NCBI GenBank assembly: GCA_041599855.1
Contig: JBFILE010000001.1
Coordinates: 1-35,863, forward strand
Length of the DNA stretch: 35,863 nt
DNA from: Thermoplasmatota archaeon
Lineage (GTDB): Archaea; Thermoplasmatota; SW-10-69-26; JACQPN01; JAJPHT01
Direction: 5' to 3'
Part shown: one piece after another, positions 92 to 7,752 of the stretch
Position numbering within the stretch: position 1 is the stretch's first letter
Layout: each line of letters opens with the position of its first letter
Program-made: the position numbers and the translations under genes
Notes under the pieces: model-generated
Seen by the model: only the letters and a program-made list of their open reading frames with translations
Told to the model about the DNA's origin: nothing
Database searches by the model: none

Positions 92-1093
92 TCATTCCTC
101 AGCGTCCGCAACGGGCCGCGCGGATTCACCCGTGGCGGTTTCGGCGGATCCAGTGCCCGCGTTCCGGACCGGCACCGGCGCGCCACCCACCCCTTTGGAT
201 GCTGACGCAACGTCCGCATCCGACGCATCCACGGCACCGGTAACGCCTGCCGCGTCCTCGTCCGCGGAGTCATCGCCGGCCGCATCCTCGTCGACCGCGT
301 CTTCCGCCGCGTCGTCGTCCTCAGCCGACACCACCTCGGCGGCCGGCGTCGTCAACTTCCGGTTCCCCTTCCCGTCCGTGTCCGGAATCCTCAGCCCGAC
401 CTTCCGCGCGAGATACTGCTTGATCTCCTCCCGGTCGGTCGCTGCGATGCCGAAGTACTCGGGGAACCGCTCCGTGGTGACGAGCATGTAGCTGCGCTCG
501 TGGGCGCGCTTGCGGATGAGGCCGAGGGCCACGAGTTCCTTCACGTGATCGTACACCTTCGCGCCCACCATCTCCATGAGGTCACTCTGGAGGAGCGGCT
601 GGTGGTATGCGATGAGAGCCAGGGTCTTGATCGTCTTGATGGAGACTTCCATGGGCGCGAGCTTCGTGGTGCGCGGCGCATACAGCGCCCGCACCTGCAT
701 GGCCCAGCGGGCGCCGGCCTTGCCGACTTCGAGGCTGGAATCGATCTCCTTGTAGTACGCCGCGAGCTTCTCGAGGGCCGTGCGCACCTGCCGCTTCGGG
801 ACCCCCGTGTTCTCGGCAATCTCTTCGACGCTCAGGGGTTTCCCGGCGCTGAAGAGCGCGGCTTCCATGATGAGGTGGGTCGCAAGACGCGAATCGGGCT
901 TGGGTGCGGGCGGCTCGATCACGACCTTTGCATCGTCCGGGATCCGGGCCTTGCCGGTGGCCACGACCTTGGCGAGGCCGTCGAGGGGGTCAGCTTCCGG
1001 GCCGGTGGCGGTTCCGGCAGCGGTGACGGCACCTGCACCGGTGGTCGCTTCTTCGTCCGATGTCGGTTTGCGGGGGGGAGCGGGCATGGCCAT
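92..1093 (-). CDS. scpB: Segregation and condensation protein B (ScpB), with acidic N- and C-terminal extensions
   Basis: Core winged-helix region is ScpB-like: EAALFSAGKPLSVEEIAENTGVP...LEVGKAGARWAMQV...IKTLALIAYHQPLLQSDLMEMVG...LVALGLIRK. Start is 6 nt after the scpA stop. It is the last gene of an smc-scpA-scpB operon. Confidence 0.85.
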   Translation of the reverse strand: MAMPAPPRKPTSDEEATTGAGAVTAAGTATGPEADPLDGLAKVVATGKARIPDDAKVVIEPPAPKPDSRLATHLIMEAALFSAGKPLSVEEIAENTGVPKRQVRTALEKLAAYYKEIDSSLEVGKAGARWAMQVRALYAPRTTKLAPMEVSIKTIKTLALIAYHQPLLQSDLMEMVGAKVYDHVKELVALGLIRKRAHERSYMLVTTERFPEYFGIAATDREEIKQYLARKVGLRIPDTDGKGNRKLTTPAAEVVSAEDDDAAEDAVDEDAAGDDSADEDAAGVTGAVDASDADVASASKGVGGAPVPVRNAGTGSAETATGESARPVADAEE

Positions 1094-1099
1094 GGTTCC

Positions 1100-2344
1100 T
1101 CACTCCGGCGACCAGGATTCAAGGGTTCGCGTCGGCGCGTCGGCGCGTTTGCGTTTCCCTGCGGTCGCGGTGGATTTGCCGGGCTTGCGGGCCGGCGCCG
1201 CGGATGGCCCCACGGCCCTGGCGGGTTGCGCCGCGCCGAGGGTCGCCTGCGTAGACGCCACGTCGGCCTCGGGAGCCGGGGCGCGCGGCTTTGCATGGGC
1301 AGCAGCGGAATCCGGGTCGGGACCGACGCCTGGTCCGTCAGCGTCCGGCGATCGGGGCGCGGCGTCGCCTTCGGGGACCGTTGCGTCCGGGCTGTCCCCG
1401 GTGGAGGGCGTTGCGTCGGTCGCCGTGTCGGAATCCGTGCCGTCCTCACCTTCGCCGTCCCCGTCCGATGCCCCCTCCACAGGGTCCGCGGGGGTCACGT
1501 TCTTCACGTAGATGGTGCCGAACGGGAAGTCCTCCTGGCTCACGTGGACCTTGCCGCCGCGGGCGAGGAACAGGACGGCAACGAGGCTCTTCACGAGGTC
1601 GTCGCGCGTCCCGGTGTGAATGCTGGCCAGCGGAATCGGAGCACCGTTGAATCGCCGGATGCGCTTCCACACCTCGACGTTGTCCGCGTCCTGGTCCTCC
1701 TGATGGGCACTGCCCTGCGCGCGGCCTTCCCGGATGCGCTTCCTGCGCTCCTTCTCGATGATGCGCTTCGAGCTGATCTCGGCGCGCAACTCGGCTTCCG
1801 CACGGGCCTCTTCGAGGGCCTGCACGAGTTCGAGGAGGGTGACGCGGCGGTTTCCGCGGTGCCGGATCTTCTCATCGAGGATGGACTCGGGCTGCTCTTC
1901 CTTGAGGACGTTCACCGTGTACTCGTAGTCCACGTCCTCGGTGAGCCATGCGGCATCGTCGATGTCGTCCCATCCGGCTTCCTCGAACTCGGGTTCCGGC
2001 GGCGGCTCCGACTTCAACCGGAGGTCGTCCGATTGCATCCGGCATATGCGCCACGCCATGAGGAGGAGGCGCCCGGCCGTGATGAGGTCCACTTCCGGCG
2101 CGTCCTTGAGGCGGCGCGCGTACAGGGTCGCGAACTGGACGAGGTCCAGGTCCCACGGGTTCAGGTGCTCTTCGAGGACGAGTTCGAAGGCGAGGGCGAT
2201 GGCGCGTTCGAACGGGTCCTCGATGGACACGTACTCGCCTTCCCCGCGCTCCTTGAGGATGCGGATGTAGTCGTTGAGGCGGTCCCCGCCCTCGTCCTCG
2301 CTCAGGATGCTCTTGTGGAAGAGCAGGTGGTTCAGGACCTGCAC
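1100..2344 (-). CDS. scpA: Segregation and condensation protein A (ScpA, kleisin), with a ~130-aa Asp/Pro/Ala-rich C-terminal tail
   Basis: GTG start at 2344. The N-terminal kleisin region (FERAIALAFELVLEEHLNPWDLDLVQFATLYARRL...DLITAGRLLLMAWRI) matches the ScpA pattern (FEGPLDLLL..I...IDI.DI.I..IT.QY). The gene sits between smc and scpB. Confidence 0.8.
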   Translation of the reverse strand: MQVLNHLLFHKSILSEDEGGDRLNDYIRILKERGEGEYVSIEDPFERAIALAFELVLEEHLNPWDLDLVQFATLYARRLKDAPEVDLITAGRLLLMAWRICRMQSDDLRLKSEPPPEPEFEEAGWDDIDDAAWLTEDVDYEYTVNVLKEEQPESILDEKIRHRGNRRVTLLELVQALEEARAEAELRAEISSKRIIEKERRKRIREGRAQGSAHQEDQDADNVEVWKRIRRFNGAPIPLASIHTGTRDDLVKSLVAVLFLARGGKVHVSQEDFPFGTIYVKNVTPADPVEGASDGDGEGEDGTDSDTATDATPSTGDSPDATVPEGDAAPRSPDADGPGVGPDPDSAAAHAKPRAPAPEADVASTQATLGAAQPARAVGPSAAPARKPGKSTATAGKRKRADAPTRTLESWSPE

Positions 2345-2477
2345 CTCGTTCGTGAATTCCGCTGCGGCTACAGGGATCCCTCCGGGAGGTGGGTCGTCGA
2401 AGGACTCGACGAGGGGTGGATGACGACGGCGCCCGCTTCGGGACCCGTGCGGTTCGTGGGCAGGCTGTCAGGACGCA

Positions 2478-5400
2478 TCAATGGGTACCCCCGTTGGGAA
2501 TGGGCGCCACTTCGGGCGCCGCCTTCGGTTCGCGGACCTCGACTTCGCGGCTGCCGGCGTCGCCATCGTCGCCGTCATCGCTGTCGTCGCCGTCGCCGTC
2601 GCCGTTGCCGTGGTCGCCTTCATCAAGGTCATCGCCACCGTCACGGCGCTTACCTTCACGGCGGCCGTCGCGGTCGGCCCCTTGGCGCGCAGCGGACACC
2701 TTGCCGGGTTCGCCGTCGCCGCCCTCGTCCTTTGGCGCGCCCTGGTCGGCGTCCGGAATCTCGGAAAGGTGGACTTCCCCGACAACCTCGGAGAGGCCGC
2801 CCTCGTTCATGGTGACGCCGTACACGTGGCTCGCCTCCTTGAGGGTGACCTTGCGGAGGGACACCATGATGACCTGGCTTGTGCGCGAGTTCGCCTTCAC
2901 CATGCGCGCAAGGAGTTCGGAGTTGATGCCGTCGAGGTTCTGGTCCACCTCGTCGAGGTAATAGAAGGGACTGGGGGTGAATTCCTGGATGGCGAAGATG
3001 AACGCCATCGAGGTCAGGCTCTTCTCGCCGCCGCTCAAGGCTTCGAGGCGCGTGACCTTCTTGCCCTTCGGCTGGGAGCGGAGAATCAGGCCGCCCTCGA
3101 ACGGATCGTCCGGGTGCTCGAGTTCAAGGCGCGCCTTGCCGCCGTCGGACAGGCGCGCGAACACGGATTGGAAGTGCTCGTTGATCTCCTCGAAGACCTT
3201 GAAGAAGCCCTCCTTCTTGCGGTCGGTGAGGGCGTCCACGAGTTCGATGAGGTTCTCGCGCTCCCCGTTCAACCGCTCGACCTCCGTGGAAAGCTGCGTC
3301 TTGCGGCTCACCTGATCGTCGTACTGCTCAAGGGCGAGGAGATTCACGTCACCGATGCGGGCGATCTCGTTGTCGAGGCGACGGATCTCGCCGCGGAGGG
3401 CTTCCTGCGTCTCCTCGACCACGTCGGGCGCGGGGACGGGGGCGGCATCGAGTTCCGCCTGCACCTCCTTCAACGCGTCCTCGAGGCCCGGGATCTTCAT
3501 CTTCAGCTGGAGGCCGAGGTCGCGGGTGGTCTCGATCTTGTCCTCCACCTTCGAGGCCTTGTTCTGGAGTTGGCTCTTCGCCTCGTACGCGGTGTCGCGC
3601 TCCTTGTGGAGGCCCCGCATCTCCTCGTTCTGCTCGGCCTCGACCTTGAGGAAGACCTCGAGCTGCTCGTTGGCCTTCGCGATCTCCTTCGCAGATTCCT
3701 TCATCCGCTCATCGTGTTCACCGCGGGCGTCCGCGAGGCGCTTCAACGTGGCCTCGATCTCGGCGCGCCGCTCCGCAACAAGCGCGATCGCATGGTCCTT
3801 CGTTTCGAGTTGGGAGTCAGCATCGCGTACGGATTCCCTGAGCTCCGAGACCTTCGCCTCCGTGCGCGTGAGGTCCTCGGCTGTGGCCCGATCGGTGGAC
3901 GAGAGGAGGATCGTGTTCTTCTCCTTGCGCTCGGCTTCGAAGGTTTCGAGGGTTGTGGTCAGGACGGAGCGACGACCCACGATCTCCTGAAGGACGGACT
4001 CCGCCTTCGTGAACTCCTCGTTCACCCGCGCAAGGTCCTTGGACACGACTTCGAGACGCGCATGAGCCTCCCGCTTCCGGTTCTCAAGGGCCTTCACGCG
4101 GTCGCCCTTGGAGGTGGCGTCCTGCGATCGGGTCCGGATCTCGCCATCAAGGGCTTCGATGGTGGCACGCACCTGCGCGAGTTCGCCCGCGAGGATCTCC
4201 TGATGCTCGACGGCGGCCCGCAGGCGCTTCGCGACGCGGTCCAGTTCCTCGCGCGTTGCACCCGCACCGAACTTGAGCTTCTCGCGGCGGGCGTCGTGGC
4301 CGCCCGTCATGGCGCCGCCGGCGTCGATGACGTCGCCGTCGAGGGTGACCATGCGCACCCCGCCCATGAGGCGGCGCGCATTCGTGAGGTCCCGCATGAT
4401 CACGGTGTCGCGGAACACGTACCAGAACGCGGGCTTGTACCGGTCCTCGTACTGGATGAGGTCGATGGCGAACCCTTCGGCCGCGTTGTCGCGAACGGCC
4501 ATGAGGGGGCGACCCGCAGGGCGGCCCGGCGTCATGCGGGAAAGGGGCAGGAACGTGGCCCGGCCGAGCTTCTTCGCCTTCAGGTAATCGATGGCTGCGG
4601 CGGCGTCCGCATCAGTCTCGGTTACGATGGCCTGCATGCGGCCCCCGGCGGCGACCTCCATGGCGGTGCCGTACTTGTCATCCACCTTCGCGAGTTCCGC
4701 GATGGTGCCGATGACCCCCGGCAGTTCGCCCTGGTCCCGCGCGGTCATGACGGCGTCCACGGCCCGCGTGTAGCCGCGCGCCGCGTTCTCGGCCGCATCG
4801 TGATCGGTCTTGAGCTGCTGGTAATCGTTCCGGAGACGGCGAACGGCGGTTTCGAGGTCCCGGAGTTCCGCCGTGACCTCGCTCTCGCGCTTCTTGTTCG
4901 CGAAGAGGTCCTTCTTCATGCGCTCAAGGTCCGTCTGGGACCCCTGGGATTCCCCGGTCAATTCCTTGAGTTCCCATTCCGCGTCCTTGAGCTCGAATGC
5001 CGCAGTCTGCTTCTTCTCCTCAAGGTCCGCGACCGCGGTGCGCGCGTGGTCCCGCTTCTCGGCGAGGCGGTCCTCCTCCAGTTTCGCCGCGTGGATCTCC
5101 TCCTGCGCGGCGTCGTACTTCTGCTTGAGCTTCGCGAGCTCCTGCTTCATCTCCGCGGCCTTGCCCTGGCCTTCGCCGATGCGGTTGCGGAGGGCGTCAA
5201 GGTGCGCGGCGGCCGTGGTCCGTTCGGCACTCGCGGTCTTCTGCCGCTCCGCGATGCCGTCCCGCTCCCTGCGGATCTTCGCCTCGTCCTTGTCGAGGCG
5301 CTTCAACGCCTCCTGGACCTCGGCACGCTCGGCCTTGATGTCGCCGAGTTCCTGCTTCGCGTAGTTGAGGCGCTCCGTGGCCCGCACCTGCTGGGCCTTG

Positions 5401-6320
5401 AGCGCGTCGATCTGGATCTTGAGCTCGCGGGCCTCTTCCCCGCCGCGTTCGGCGATCTCGGACTCGACCTTCTTCAGCGCATCGTCCGCCTTCACGATGT
5501 CCTCGCGGAGGACACCAAGGGCCTTCTCGAGATCCGCGATCTCGGTGACGTTCCGCGTCATCTGGCGGTTCACGCTGTCGATCTCGCCCGTGATCGCATC
5601 CGCGCGCCGGCGGGCCAGCTTGACCTTCGCGAGGTCCAACTGGTCGCGGGCGTCCTTGAAGCGGAGGGCCGCGGCCCGTTCCCGTTCGAGCTTCTTGATC
5701 TGCGCGTCGATCTCGTCGAGGATGATGCCGATGCGTTCCAGGTTCGCCTCTACCTGGGCGCGCTCCTCGTTCGCCTTCGTGATGTCCGCGTCGAACTTGG
5801 TGATCCCCGCGATGTCGTCGAGGATGCGGCGACGTTCGAGCGGGCTCATCTCGACGATGCGGGTGACGTCGCCCTGACGGACGATGTTGTAGCCGTCGGC
5901 GCTGATGCGCGAGTGGGCGAGAAGGCTGTCGAACTCGGTGAGGCTGGAGGCCCGGCCGTTCACGTAGAAATGGGAATAATAGTTGTCCTTGTTGTTCTTC
6001 GCGAGCTTCACGTGACGCATGAGCGTCACCTCGTCCGTGTCCACCGGGATGACCCGGTCCACGTTGTCGAAGACGAGGCTCACGCGGCAATGGTCCGCGG
6101 GCTTGCGTTCCTTGCCGCCGTTGAAGATGAGGTCGGTGAGCCGCCCGGCGCGGATCGCCTTGTTGGACTTGGGCCCGAGGACGAAAAGGATCGCGTCACC
6201 GATGTTGCTTTTCCCGGAACCGTTGGGGCCCGTGATCGCAGTGAAGCCATCCAGAAAGGGGATGGTGAGCTTTCGTCCGAAGCTCTTGAAATTCTCGACC
6301 TCGACCCGCTTCAGGTGCAC
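2478..6320 (-). CDS. smc: Chromosome segregation ATPase SMC (1280 aa), with an acidic Asp/Gly-rich C-terminal tail
   Basis: Walker A FTAITGPNGSGKSNIGDAILFVLG, long coiled coils, hinge region (GVIGTIAELAKVDDKYGTAMEVAAGG), signature LSGGEKSLT, Walker B FYYLDEVDQNLD. I place the start at GTG 6320 (VHLKRVEVENFKSF), preceded by GGAGG 9 nt upstream. The ORF-track extension to 7091 is non-coding repeat sequence. Confidence 0.9.
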   Translation of the reverse strand: MHLKRVEVENFKSFGRKLTIPFLDGFTAITGPNGSGKSNIGDAILFVLGPKSNKAIRAGRLTDLIFNGGKERKPADHCRVSLVFDNVDRVIPVDTDEVTLMRHVKLAKNNKDNYYSHFYVNGRASSLTEFDSLLAHSRISADGYNIVRQGDVTRIVEMSPLERRRILDDIAGITKFDADITKANEERAQVEANLERIGIILDEIDAQIKKLERERAAALRFKDARDQLDLAKVKLARRRADAITGEIDSVNRQMTRNVTEIADLEKALGVLREDIVKADDALKKVESEIAERGGEEARELKIQIDALKAQQVRATERLNYAKQELGDIKAERAEVQEALKRLDKDEAKIRRERDGIAERQKTASAERTTAAAHLDALRNRIGEGQGKAAEMKQELAKLKQKYDAAQEEIHAAKLEEDRLAEKRDHARTAVADLEEKKQTAAFELKDAEWELKELTGESQGSQTDLERMKKDLFANKKRESEVTAELRDLETAVRRLRNDYQQLKTDHDAAENAARGYTRAVDAVMTARDQGELPGVIGTIAELAKVDDKYGTAMEVAAGGRMQAIVTETDADAAAAIDYLKAKKLGRATFLPLSRMTPGRPAGRPLMAVRDNAAEGFAIDLIQYEDRYKPAFWYVFRDTVIMRDLTNARRLMGGVRMVTLDGDVIDAGGAMTGGHDARREKLKFGAGATREELDRVAKRLRAAVEHQEILAGELAQVRATIEALDGEIRTRSQDATSKGDRVKALENRKREAHARLEVVSKDLARVNEEFTKAESVLQEIVGRRSVLTTTLETFEAERKEKNTILLSSTDRATAEDLTRTEAKVSELRESVRDADSQLETKDHAIALVAERRAEIEATLKRLADARGEHDERMKESAKEIAKANEQLEVFLKVEAEQNEEMRGLHKERDTAYEAKSQLQNKASKVEDKIETTRDLGLQLKMKIPGLEDALKEVQAELDAAPVPAPDVVEETQEALRGEIRRLDNEIARIGDVNLLALEQYDDQVSRKTQLSTEVERLNGERENLIELVDALTDRKKEGFFKVFEEINEHFQSVFARLSDGGKARLELEHPDDPFEGGLILRSQPKGKKVTRLEALSGGEKSLTSMAFIFAIQEFTPSPFYYLDEVDQNLDGINSELLARMVKANSRTSQVIMVSLRKVTLKEASHVYGVTMNEGGLSEVVGEVHLSEIPDADQGAPKDEGGDGEPGKVSAARQGADRDGRREGKRRDGGDDLDEGDHGNGDGDGDDSDDGDDGDAGSREVEVREPKAAPEVAPIPNGGTH

Positions 6321-6417
6321 GGGGGCAATCCTCCGGAGTGAAGGGAATGCCCGCAGCCACGCGCGTCCGCGTGCCGGTCGGCCGTCCTTGGCGCGGTGCG
6401 CCATGCGGCCACATGAT

Positions 6418-6435
6418 TTCCTGTGGAACCACAGG
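6418..6435. other. Degenerate ORB-like element inside an inverted repeat
   Basis: TTCCTGTGGAACC (6418-6430) resembles the TTCCAGTGGAAAC copy at 6586. CCTGTGG-AA-CCACAGG (6420-6435) is a 7-bp inverted repeat with a 2-nt spacer. Confidence 0.25.
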
Positions 6436-6516
6436 TAACCCATCCGGAGGCCTGGGGCACGCTCAGGCGAACGTGCCGTTCGGCATTCCCATCCATCCAC
6501 ACAATCCGGCTCGTGG

Positions 6517-6527
6517 CATATAAGGGA
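6517..6527 (+). promoter_or_regulatory. TATA-box-like element (CATATAAGGGA) pointing rightward into the repeat region
   Basis: It has the same 'A/T-rich hexamer followed by GGGA' layout as the elements upstream of the pilus-cluster genes at 13967, 22556 and 25994. It is one of very few A/T-rich spots in this intergenic region. Confidence 0.3.
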
Positions 6528-6540
6528 TACCGTTCGACGC

Positions 6541-6660
6541 GGGGCTTTCGGGGGCTTCGCCAAGACGGGGCGGGGGAAATCGGGGTTCCAGTGGAAACGG
6601 AGCTTGTGCGGTTCCATGTGTGGGGCGGGGTGCGGGGGGCCACTTGGCTCGGTGGCGGGG
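6541..6660 (+). repeat. Cluster of G4-G6 runs on the plus strand (candidate G-strings or G-quadruplex-forming tract)
   Basis: At least nine runs of four or more G within 120 nt. Examples: GGGGCGGGGGAAATCGGGG (6567-6585) and GGGGCGGGGTGCGGGGGG (6622-6639). Confidence 0.6.
6586..6598. promoter_or_regulatory. ORB-like dyad TTCCAGTGGAAAC (candidate Orc1/Cdc6 origin recognition box)
   Basis: Exact TTCCAGTGGAAAC, preceded by GGGG and followed by GGAG. From memory this matches the dyad core of archaeal ORB/mini-ORB elements. A weaker copy, TTCCATGTGTGGGG, lies at 6612-6625. Confidence 0.3.
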
Positions 6661-6675
6661 CATCCGTTGCCATGG

Positions 6676-6795
6676 CCCACGAATGCGGAGCTTCGGTTGC
6701 ATCGACCCACGAATGCGGAGCTCCTGTTGGCTCGACCCACGAATGCGGAGCTCCGGTTGGCTCGACCCACGAATTCGGGGGCCCGGTTCATTGAA
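6676..6795. repeat. Four head-to-tail 30-bp tandem repeats (fourth copy degenerate)
   Basis: R1 6676-6705 cccacgaatgcggagcttcggttgcatcga. R2 6706-6735 cccacgaatgcggagctcctgttggctcga. R3 6736-6765 cccacgaatgcggagctccggttggctcga. R4 6766-6795 cccacgaattcgggggcccggttcattgaa. R2 and R3 contain the palindrome GGAGCTCC. CCGGTTGG recurs at 6828-6835. Confidence 0.9.
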
Positions 6796-6923
6796 TCAGG
6801 AGTACCGGGCTTGGCATGGGAATGAATCCGGTTGGTTGGTTCCGCGACCATTTCACACAGAGTGCACAGAGACACTGAGAGCACAGAGACGGATGAAGAA
6901 ATCATGAAGGCCGGAGGCGGGCG

Positions 6924-6934
6924 CCCCCCCCCCC
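6924..6934. repeat. Homopolymeric C11 tract
   Basis: gcg-CCCCCCCCCCC-atg, ending 93 nt upstream of the DUF599 gene start. It is the longest homopolymer I saw in the window. Confidence 0.9.
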
Positions 6935-7026
6935 ATGCCCGCGGCAGCATCCGCCGACCCACCCCCATTCCTACGGACCCTCGGAGTCGCGAGCCGTCGA
7001 GTCGCCGGGTCCGACCCACGCAATTT

Positions 7027-7752
7027 ATGTCCCCCGCCCGGACTCCCCTAACCCAAGTGGCCCTTCCCCCGCTGAGTGTCTGGGACGTCATCGGACTGAT
7101 CCTGTTGCTCTCATTCAGCTTCGGCTACCACATTGCGTACCACATGTACAGCCACTATCATCCCCTCGCCACGGTGAAGGGGAAGATCCACCTGTACCGG
7201 CGGACGTGGGTGAAGCGGATCCTGGATCGGCGGGACTACATCGTCGGGGTCCAGGCCATCCGGAACCTGATCATGACCGCGAACCTGATGGCCACGAGTG
7301 CCATCCTCGTGATCGGTGTCATCCTCAACATCATCGTCACCGGGGACCTGAACCAGACGTTCCACCCCACGGGGGAACCGGACCCCATCATCTTCTGGAA
7401 ATTCGTGGCCCTGACCGTGACGTTCGCGTTCAGCTTCTTCAGCTTCCTGATCAGTGTGCGGTACCTGAACCAGCTCACGATCCTGATCGCGGCGGACACG
7501 GACCTCATCGAGCACGTGGAAGGTGTGGATGGGATCACGTACCTCACCATGATGCTGAACCGCGCGACGAACCGGTACACGTACGGGCAGCGCGGATACT
7601 ACTTCGCCATCGCCGTCGTGGCCTGGATCTTCAGTGACGTGGCATTCGTCCTCGCCACCCTGTTCATCGGCATCTTCCTCGTCGGCGTCCTCGACTTCCA
7701 GCAGTGGCGGCCGCCGAAGGCGCTTCGCAAGGAAGCGAAGGACCTGGTGTGA
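7027..7752 (+). CDS. DUF599-family integral membrane protein
   Basis: GLILLLSFSFGYHIAYHMY...LYRRTWVKRIL...VGVQAIRNLIMTANLMATSAILVIGVIL matches the DUF599 pattern (GYH..., R..W, vQ.lRN.iM...AstAIl). Start chosen at ATG 7027, just before the first TM helix. The ORF-track start at 6832 adds a Pro/Arg-rich non-coding-looking extension. Confidence 0.7.
   Translation: MSPARTPLTQVALPPLSVWDVIGLILLLSFSFGYHIAYHMYSHYHPLATVKGKIHLYRRTWVKRILDRRDYIVGVQAIRNLIMTANLMATSAILVIGVILNIIVTGDLNQTFHPTGEPDPIIFWKFVALTVTFAFSFFSFLISVRYLNQLTILIAADTDLIEHVEGVDGITYLTMMLNRATNRYTYGQRGYYFAIAVVAWIFSDVAFVLATLFIGIFLVGVLDFQQWRPPKALRKEAKDLV

Follow-up and report, generated by a model that had tools for sequence, protein, structure and literature searches.

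The window analysed here, a 35,863-nt stretch of DNA, is the entire contig C1 of a metagenome-assembled genome (MAG) of a Thermoplasmatota archaeon (4.49 Mb, 809 contigs, 67% GC). The condensin gene smc and a DUF599 membrane-protein gene are separated in it by a 706-bp non-coding spacer (positions 6321-7026), and the locus raises the question of what this spacer does. An original prediction had proposed a replication origin or an element bound by the initiator Orc1/Cdc6, on the grounds of a dyad like the core of an origin recognition box (ORB). The limits of the spacer hold, with the flanking genes at 6320 and 7027, and all the sequence features that had been listed are present where they were placed. 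The two halves of that proposal fared differently. Orc1 binding is plausible in view of the genome-wide ranks of the dyads (3 and 4 on core scores), their pairing and the presence of the dyad in relatives, while the origin did not stand: the spacer has no G-string, no AT-rich element and no initiator gene on its contig, its boxes face outward, and better candidates lie on contigs C91 and C302/C510.

The reading that we prefer, with a probability of about one half, is that the spacer is a composite regulatory region and not an origin, in which the condensin promoter stands between core boxes of the Orc1/Cdc6 type that serve as a control site linked to the initiator. In the left half (6321 to ~6610) lie the promoter of the smc-scpA-scpB operon and its predicted 5' leader. 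An Orc1/Cdc6 paralogue would bind two core boxes, A and B, through its winged-helix domain and thereby modulate condensin transcription, which would tie chromosome compaction and segregation to the level of the initiator. The right half (~6597 to 6934) is a lineage-specific expansion, in which a 30-bp tandem array is followed by a single copy of a dispersed CACAGAG repeat and by a C11 tract. Both the binding of Orc1 at the boxes and its effect on transcription are what we infer from sequence.

Boxes A and B at the smc promoter

The 13-mer TTCCAGTGGAAAC at 6586-6598 had been identified as the dyad core of an ORB. The match is exact and the consensus invoked agrees with the published one, which reads CTTCCAGTGGAAACGAAAGGGGT for archaea and GTTCCAGTGGAAATGG-AGGGGTA for Methanomassiliicoccales (PMC4153887). 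A genome-wide count returned this single copy in the 4.49-Mb MAG, against ~0.04 expected from base composition. The 13-mer belongs to box B (GTTCCAGTGGAAACGGAGCTTG, 6585-6606, plus strand), which contains the perfect dyad TTCCAGTGGAA at 6586-6596. Box B matches the core TTCCAGTGGAAA(C/T) at 13 of 13 bases and the archaeal consensus at 14 of 14 consecutive bases after the initial C; after GGAAACGGAG comes CTTGT and not the G-string GGGGT. The second box, A (GTTCCACAGGAAATCATGTGGC, 6408-6429, minus strand), has TTCCACAGGAAAT as its core. A degenerate copy had been placed at 6418-6430, and it proved to be part of this real core match, which scores well only on the minus strand. The two boxes form an inverted pair 153 nt apart with their 3' ends outward. 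No GGGGT G-string was found at the canonical spacing in either: box B runs on into GGAGCTTG and box A into TCATGTGGC.

A position weight matrix (PWM) was built from ten published Methanomassiliicoccales ORBs, and all 9 million positions were scanned with it. At a threshold of 16.5 bits, 16 matches were found in the genome and 1 in a control made by reversing the genome, which does not preserve codon structure. With the full PWM, box A reaches 19.8 bits (rank 5) and box B 16.6 bits (rank 15), and both lose all their score in the G-string half; with the core-only PWM, box B ranks third and box A fourth genome-wide. Two matches within 300 bp of each other occur only at the orc1-linked locus on C91 and in the smc spacer. 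The excess of PWM hits, the pairing and the core-only ranks together make a chance origin of boxes A and B very unlikely. A further proposed copy at 6612-6625 has a negative PWM score and belongs to the 30-bp array as one of its degenerate units. The heptamer GGTTCCA, present three times in 190 bp, was also considered and is not significant alone (3 such clusters seen, ~0.9 expected).

The G-runs described around the dyad were confirmed as a strand-biased cluster, with nine runs of at least four G on the plus strand between 6536 and 6665, surrounding box B. Only 0.013% of the 130-bp windows of the MAG hold at least eight same-strand G-runs. Of the nine runs, those on the right (6622-6660) fall in degenerate 30-bp array units (repeat family D1).

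The smc promoter was located by aligning the upstream regions of smc from 13 order-level relatives and 80 further Thermoplasmatota loci. These share a layout of a TATA box, ~20 nt, the start motif GGGATGG(G/A)ATGC(A/C), a leader of 64-105 nt and the start codon. Of 90 Thermoplasmatota smc loci, 60 have this start motif; its distance upstream from smc is 50-260 nt, mostly 64-105 nt. Its copy in the window is TGGATGGATGGGAATGCCGAA (6479-6499, minus strand), in which GGATGGGAATGCCG is identical in the relatives G006 and G010. By homology with the relatives, the TATA box is CTTATATG in the sense of smc (6517-6524, minus strand); the block GAACGnTAT before it also occurs in genus g5, and TATA boxes in the family lie 18-23 nt before the start motif. 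The homology of these two elements places the predicted transcription start near 6494 and gives a putative leader of ~174 nt (6321-6494, minus strand), ~100 nt longer than those of the relatives. Box A lies in this extra leader segment, centred at about +75 of the predicted transcript, and box B is centred ~97 nt upstream of the start, so the two boxes flank the condensin promoter. Box A also overlaps a perfect 16-bp palindrome, CCTGTGGAACCACAGG (6420-6435), which forms a hairpin in the folded leader.

The start motif has no match in Rfam, and its other occurrences in the genome appear random or lie in coding sequence, which speaks against a genome-wide signal. The 14-nt motif spans lineages from Methanomassiliicoccales to soil groups, and hairpins that vary between lineages come after it; judged from this alignment, the condensin operon may have in it a so far undescribed element of its leader or promoter-proximal region. 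In the window it can pair with GGCATTCCC ahead of the Shine-Dalgarno sequence. The pairing segment GGCATTCCCTTCACTCC (6335-6351, minus strand, in the sense of smc) lies just upstream of the Shine-Dalgarno sequence and forms with 6482-6498 an inverted repeat (I3) of 17 nt and 82% complementarity. The duplex has -21.0 kcal/mol (z=-2.3 against shuffles), and the helix is part of the minimum-free-energy fold. A helix of this kind, joining the start motif to the sequence ahead of the ribosome-binding site, was rejected as a universal feature (mean z -0.7, with 10 of 50 loci below -1.64), as it is strong only in the window and in some high-GC lineages. In Methanomassiliicoccales and allied loci (L048, L050, L056, L072, L079, L083 and others), an inverted repeat GTCCGAC-N(2-17)-GTCGGAC stands directly before the start motif; its arms enclose the TATA box in some of them. 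This repeat, absent from the window, has the appearance of either a 5' hairpin or an operator.

The dyad recurs at the smc promoters of relatives. Of 55 high-GC loci, 6 have a sequence within one mismatch of TTCCANTGGAA between -300 and -60 relative to smc, where composition predicts ~0.15, and the density of TCCANNGGAA in this interval is 12 times that of the remaining locus sequence. An ORB-core dyad 60-100 nt upstream of the transcription start site of the smc promoter is found in the window's family and its sister clade. In G002, GGTTCCACCGGAAACGG lies 24 nt before the TATA box and a second copy, GGTTCCACCCGAAACGC, is present; in G003, GTTTCATCTGGAA lies 52 nt before it, and the equivalent distance in the window is 58 nt. 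Genus g5 keeps TCCAsTGGGC beside the TATA box, directly upstream of it. Eight loci of the sister clade carry the dyad at a fixed -139 or at about -160 with divergent flanks, and these sites keep a partial 3' extension, (G/C)AAGG(G/C)GT, which raises their full-PWM scores to as much as 23.5 bits. In the SMC tree, one clade of 35 rows, which holds the window's family and the sister clade, takes in all 6 of the sites that have at most one mismatch and 8 of the 14 that have two. Variants of the dyad at these smc sites, TTCCACCGGAAA and TTCCACCCGAAA, also occur in ORB-like sequences ending in GGGGT in G005 and G011, and the one of G011 is on a contig that carries orc1. In the complete genomes of relatives orc1 lies 190 kb to 1.2 Mb from smc, and in the sister clade it is on other contigs than smc; by gene position, smc is not at the origin in these relatives.

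Other ORB loci and the competing readings

The best PWM match of the genome is a perfect full ORB, GTTCCAGTGGAAATGAAGGGGT, on C302 (36.7 of 36.9 bits), the sole perfect full ORB in the MAG. The end of C302 and the start of C510 are the same over 141 identical bases, and this overlap places the ORB within the ~1.15-kb spacer that separates polB from mcm, where it precedes the ATG of mcm by 908 nt. The sequence features of the polB|mcm spacer make it a candidate origin or a candidate initiator-controlled mcm promoter. The joined spacer (C302:4150-4953 plus C510:1-344) also has ~60-bp repeats rich in GCGGCAA.

The next matches are on C91, within a zone of low GC (mean 0.52, minimum 0.35) that is 1.4 kb long and lies 3-4 kb from orc1.1. 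The ORB pair there, at 6175 (plus strand) and ~6437 (minus strand), faces inward. As far as sequence can tell, this orc1.1 locus is most likely the primary origin. Several further elements were noted on C91. An AT-rich stretch at 3270-3580 with degenerate ORB cores and GC down to 0.45 lies directly upstream of orc1. The region 5724-7450, past an HflX-like gene (assigned by eye), has four ORB-like boxes, one of them beside a C8 tract. Tandem repeats of ~62 bp occupy ~5724-5950, and GTTCCATTCC units are found at ~6990-7120. GGGGT ends the ORB-like sequences of C302 and C91 as well as the best of those in the relatives.

The three best ORB loci of the MAG, polB|mcm, orc1.1 on C91 and smc-scpAB, thus all lie beside replication or chromosome genes. 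They suggest, tentatively and with the odds against it, that the Orc1/Cdc6 of high-GC Thermoplasmatota may also be a transcription factor for a few replication and segregation genes (orc1, polB|mcm and smc-scpAB). If this were true, the initiator level would set condensin expression once per cell cycle, in an archaeal counterpart of the DnaA regulon. The dyads do not point clearly to a wider regulon within the MAG: the genes beside those that have at most one mismatch are mostly unrelated to DNA, although orc1 and a topoisomerase VI B-like gene (by eye) are among them. Two other sites were noted in G002, a full ORB upstream of a PolD DP2-like gene and TTCCACCGGAAAC just upstream of a dCMP deaminase-like gene (both by eye). 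On C328 (1030-1140), ten tandem copies of CCCCGTTCCA lie upstream of a short-chain dehydrogenase-like gene; read on the opposite strand, this unit is TGGAACGGGG, in which an ORB half-site is joined to a G-string.

Several observations weigh against initiator control of the condensin promoter. At origins the G-string is contacted by the ATPase domain of the initiator, and both boxes lack it. The dyad is patchy within its clade, being absent from G001, reduced to a half-site in several g5 members and missing in several sister-clade loci; where present in the sister clade, it is either non-coding or overlaps the 3' end of the kinase gene upstream. The shorter leaders of the relatives hold nothing that corresponds to box A, which may be only a leader hairpin. 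The codon structure lost in the reversed control also counts here, and the remaining strong PWM matches in the MAG are not beside replication genes, so these matches do not amount to a wider Orc1 regulon. In Pyrococcus, an isolated 13-bp mini-ORB identical to an origin copy is unbound by Cdc6 in vivo (PMC1904270), and in S. islandicus changes beside the mini-ORB core cut the affinity of Orc1-1 at least 10-fold (PMC3607249).

These last two results weaken the case for Orc1 binding and make a serious rival of another factor. The dyad would then be the operator of a different winged-helix or dimeric protein that recognises TTCC-N3-GGAA, and its likeness to an ORB would be convergent or coincidental. 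Such a binder would explain the conservation equally well, and we regard it as a less probable account that nevertheless deserves attention. Only the palindromic core is common to the sites, the Orc1-specific G-string is missing in the family, and genus g5 keeps just TCCAsTGGGC directly upstream of TATA. Furthermore, TTCCNNNGGAA has 128 sites against ~41 expected from composition (~3 times), and those within 260 bp upstream of the starts of open reading frames (ORFs) are mostly by genes unrelated to DNA; isolated mini-ORBs, as in Pyrococcus, are poor Orc1 sites. The match at smc nevertheless exceeds the palindrome, with GGAAAC/T next and the 14 consecutive consensus bases in box B. The sister-clade sites keep (G/C)AAGG(G/C)GT with their high scores, and the remaining best ORB loci at orc1 and polB|mcm fit a single initiator-centred set.

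A secondary or dormant origin unlinked to an initiator gene is unlikely. Inverted mini-ORBs would recruit Orc1 in it, with the G-runs and the iteron-like array as accessory elements. The inverted ORB-core pair 153 nt apart, unique in the MAG besides the orc1-linked cluster, agrees with this, as do the exceptional G-run cluster, the long, divergently transcribed spacer with its tandem array, and the large 4.5-Mb genome with three Cdc6_C matches where most relatives have two. These three matches are on C91, C205 and C690 and none is on C1, which bears out the earlier remark that the window holds no orc1/cdc6 gene; DnaA has no match in the MAG. The spacer has no initiator gene within 6 kb on one side and 29 kb on the other. 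The remark that no strongly AT-rich unwinding element is present also proved right: the lowest 80-bp GC in the spacer is 0.50, in the dispersed repeat, against 0.35 in the ORB zone of C91, and the interval between boxes A and B has a GC of 0.645. The GC skew within C1 has no extremum at 6.3-7.0 kb, which is uninformative on its own.

In S. islandicus oriC1, two inverted ORBs lie around an AT-rich region and each is required for activity (PMC12141716). The smc spacer fails on four testable features of an origin: the inverted pair exists but does not flank an unwinding element, as it faces outward, unlike the inward pair of C91, around a GC-rich interval; and there is no AT-rich element, no GGGGT G-string and no adjacent initiator gene (usual at origins, not universal). 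What was found are the features of an ORB or mini-ORB, namely the match to the dyad core, an abundance and clustering beyond chance, and an orthologous position that is kept, if patchily. In addition, box A lies inside the predicted smc leader, and repeats account for both the proposed third copy and the low-GC patch. Relatives do not share the smc-DUF599 junction, yet in them the dyad stays with the smc promoter even in single-site spacers of ~160-200 bp, which a secondary origin leaves unexplained.

Least probable of all is that the boxes are non-functional, box B being a decayed ORB overwritten by the 30-bp array and box A a chance by-product of the leader hairpin: the array does abut the dyad, GGAGCTTGTGCGGTTCCATG at 6599-6618 resembles a degenerate array unit, box B is identical to the ORB-like sequence CTCCAGTGGAAACGGAGGGGT of G013 over CCAGTGGAAACGGAG and then diverges, and conservation among relatives is patchy, but the perfect 11-bp dyad plus AAC is intact while its flanks changed, a promoter-flanking pair would be expected by chance only an estimated ~0.02-0.2 times genome-wide, and equivalent dyads stand at similar TATA distances in G002, G003 and the sister clade, which argues for selection.

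Repeats and gene neighbourhood of the spacer

The right half of the spacer is made of repeats. The four 30-bp tandem repeats that had been reported were recovered by Tandem Repeats Finder (period 30, 3.4 clean copies, 91% matches, 6676-6778). With the degenerate units (families D1 and D2), which lie toward box B, the array extends from ~6597/6625 to 6804, abuts box B and comprises ~6-7 units, each with CGGTTG (6597-6804, no strand assigned). It has no copies elsewhere in the MAG.

The lower-GC stretch at 6845-6910, offered earlier as support for an origin, is one copy of a dispersed repeat of ~20 copies and no unwinding element. This copy (6826-6891, plus strand) consists of a CCGGTTG box and then a 40-bp core, TTTCACACAGAGnGCACAGAGnCACgGAGAGCACAGAGAC, with four CACAGAG units ~9 bp apart. 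The repeat was found 19 times by pattern and 22 times by BLAST, on 16 contigs: C1, C11, C24, C27, C38, C40, C49, C177, C328, C388, C402, C437, C462, C612, C671 and C707. Between box and core lie 12-18 nt, and the copies often form convergent pairs 100-250 bp apart; pairs with 40-bp arms occur on C40, C49, C177 and C388, with neither inner parts nor outer flanks conserved. All copies are intergenic by a rough gene call based on the GC content of third codon positions (GC3). A search of 20 relatives from its class gave no copy, and by this comparison the repeat is specific to this genome.

Several origins and roles of the dispersed repeat were considered and set aside. It has no matches in viral contigs, no Y1 transposase was found for a system of repetitive extragenic palindromic (REP) elements and their associated tyrosine transposase (RAYT), its orientation does not vary consistently with the neighbouring genes, as that of a promoter would, and no ORB dyad lies within 500 bp of the other 20 copies. 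The 141-bp overlap of contig ends suggests an assembly with k=141; with a core of only ~40 bp and copies 88-95% identical, this makes a chimeric join at the repeat seem unlikely. A recent repeat expansion in the right half explains the length of the spacer. The tract of 11 C read from the sequence at 6924-6934 (plus strand) lies 93 nt upstream of the DUF599 start.

A hidden gene in the spacer was rejected. The frame of smc is open throughout (ORF 2478-7091), but GC3 there is 0.57-0.77 and the translation is not protein-like; every ORF of the spacer has a GC3 of 0.56-0.70, against 0.82-0.89 in real genes. The six frames hold 15 stop codons where ~36 would be expected, and the open smc frame follows from this general depletion of stop codons, an effect of composition. 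Rfam and tRNA scans gave no match in the window, spacer included. A known RNA was likewise rejected, as the same scans of the smc loci of five relatives gave only the tRNA of G003. The spacer DNA gave only noise against 40 relatives and one match at 56% identity in a metagenome scan.

The condensin operon (92-6320, minus strand) is driven from the spacer, and its intergenic gaps are 6 and 133 bp. The smc gene (2478-6320, minus strand) has a GTG start and a GGAGGA Shine-Dalgarno sequence, and the N-termini of the relatives' SMC proteins align from residue 1. It is followed by scpA (1100-2344, minus strand; PF02616, 25 bits against a cut-off of 24.6) and scpB (92-1093, minus strand; PF04079, E=8.6e-32). 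The nearest kin of the SMC protein are in soil Thermoplasmatota MAGs and then in Methanomassiliicoccales. On the other side lies the DUF599 gene (7027-7752, plus strand; PF04654, E=2.8e-44), whose start is most likely 7027 on the alignment of homologues from residues 2-17. In the order-level relatives that hold both genes, smc and the DUF599 gene are on separate contigs, and on this evidence from contigs their adjacency is lineage-specific.

Two further features of smc loci were noted in relatives. A tRNA gene lies ~350-500 nt upstream of smc in G003 (L026/L039; Rfam match) and G014 (L033; by eye), at the place taken in the window by the repeats of the spacer and by the DUF599 gene, and this position may mark a rearrangement point. 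In G007 (L027) and G006 (L028), the start position of smc is CTG (ctCTGCACCTGAAG) with an in-frame TGA just upstream, which suggests a non-canonical start codon or unusual initiation.

Comparison with known systems

For the prediction of origins in MAGs, this locus indicates that a perfect ORB core in a long spacer is insufficient, and that a G-string, an unwinding element and conservation of context are needed too. To our knowledge, no cell-cycle regulators are known in Archaea outside the Sulfolobales, nor is the timing of condensin expression. If the boxes are functional, they would provide a testable link from replication initiation to chromosome compaction and segregation and would extend the gene-regulatory roles of Orc1/Cdc6.

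The dispersed element at 6826-6891 resembles miniature inverted-repeat transposable elements (MITEs) and REP-like repeats: it is short and confined to a single lineage, and its many copies lie strictly between genes, often as inverted pairs. It differs in that its paired copies have no conserved inner sequence, no target-site duplication or transposase was identified, and its core consists of four 9-bp CACAGAG iterations after a separately conserved CCGGTTG box.

Among initiator sites, the ORBs of Methanomassiliicoccales (PMC4153887, Table 2) belong to the same phylum and have the core GTTCCAGTGGAAA(T/C) in common with the boxes described here. In that order, Borrel et al. (2014, PMC4153887) also describe orphan ORBs that stand singly, away from the orc1 pair, on the downstream side of ftsZ and of a nifH/nifE fusion. 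Those are full ORBs with AGGGGT, whereas the boxes here have no G-string and form an inverted pair around a promoter; the recurrence at smc in several lineages, seen here, is not described in that paper. Pyrococcus has ~30 copies of a 13-bp mini-ORB outside oriC (Matsunaga et al. 2007, PMC1904270), which are likewise core-only boxes built on TTCC...GAA. They are unbound in chromatin immunoprecipitation on microarrays (ChIP-chip) and their positions are not conserved, in contrast to the position kept relative to the smc promoter. In Sulfolobus oriC1, with its arrangement ORB3-DNA unwinding element (DUE)-ORB2 (PMC12141716; PMC3607249), two inverted initiator boxes also lie ~130-150 bp apart, but in the smc spacer a GC-rich promoter lies between the boxes, which face outward, have no G-strings and have no adjacent initiator gene.

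A parallel in function may be drawn with bacteria. At promoters with DnaA boxes, for example those of dnaA and nrd, the bacterial initiator DnaA serves as a transcription factor. The protein family and the motif are different, and initiator control at the archaeal promoter is proposed from sequence; what the two would have in common is the reuse of an initiator site in the promoters of genes for replication and chromosome maintenance.

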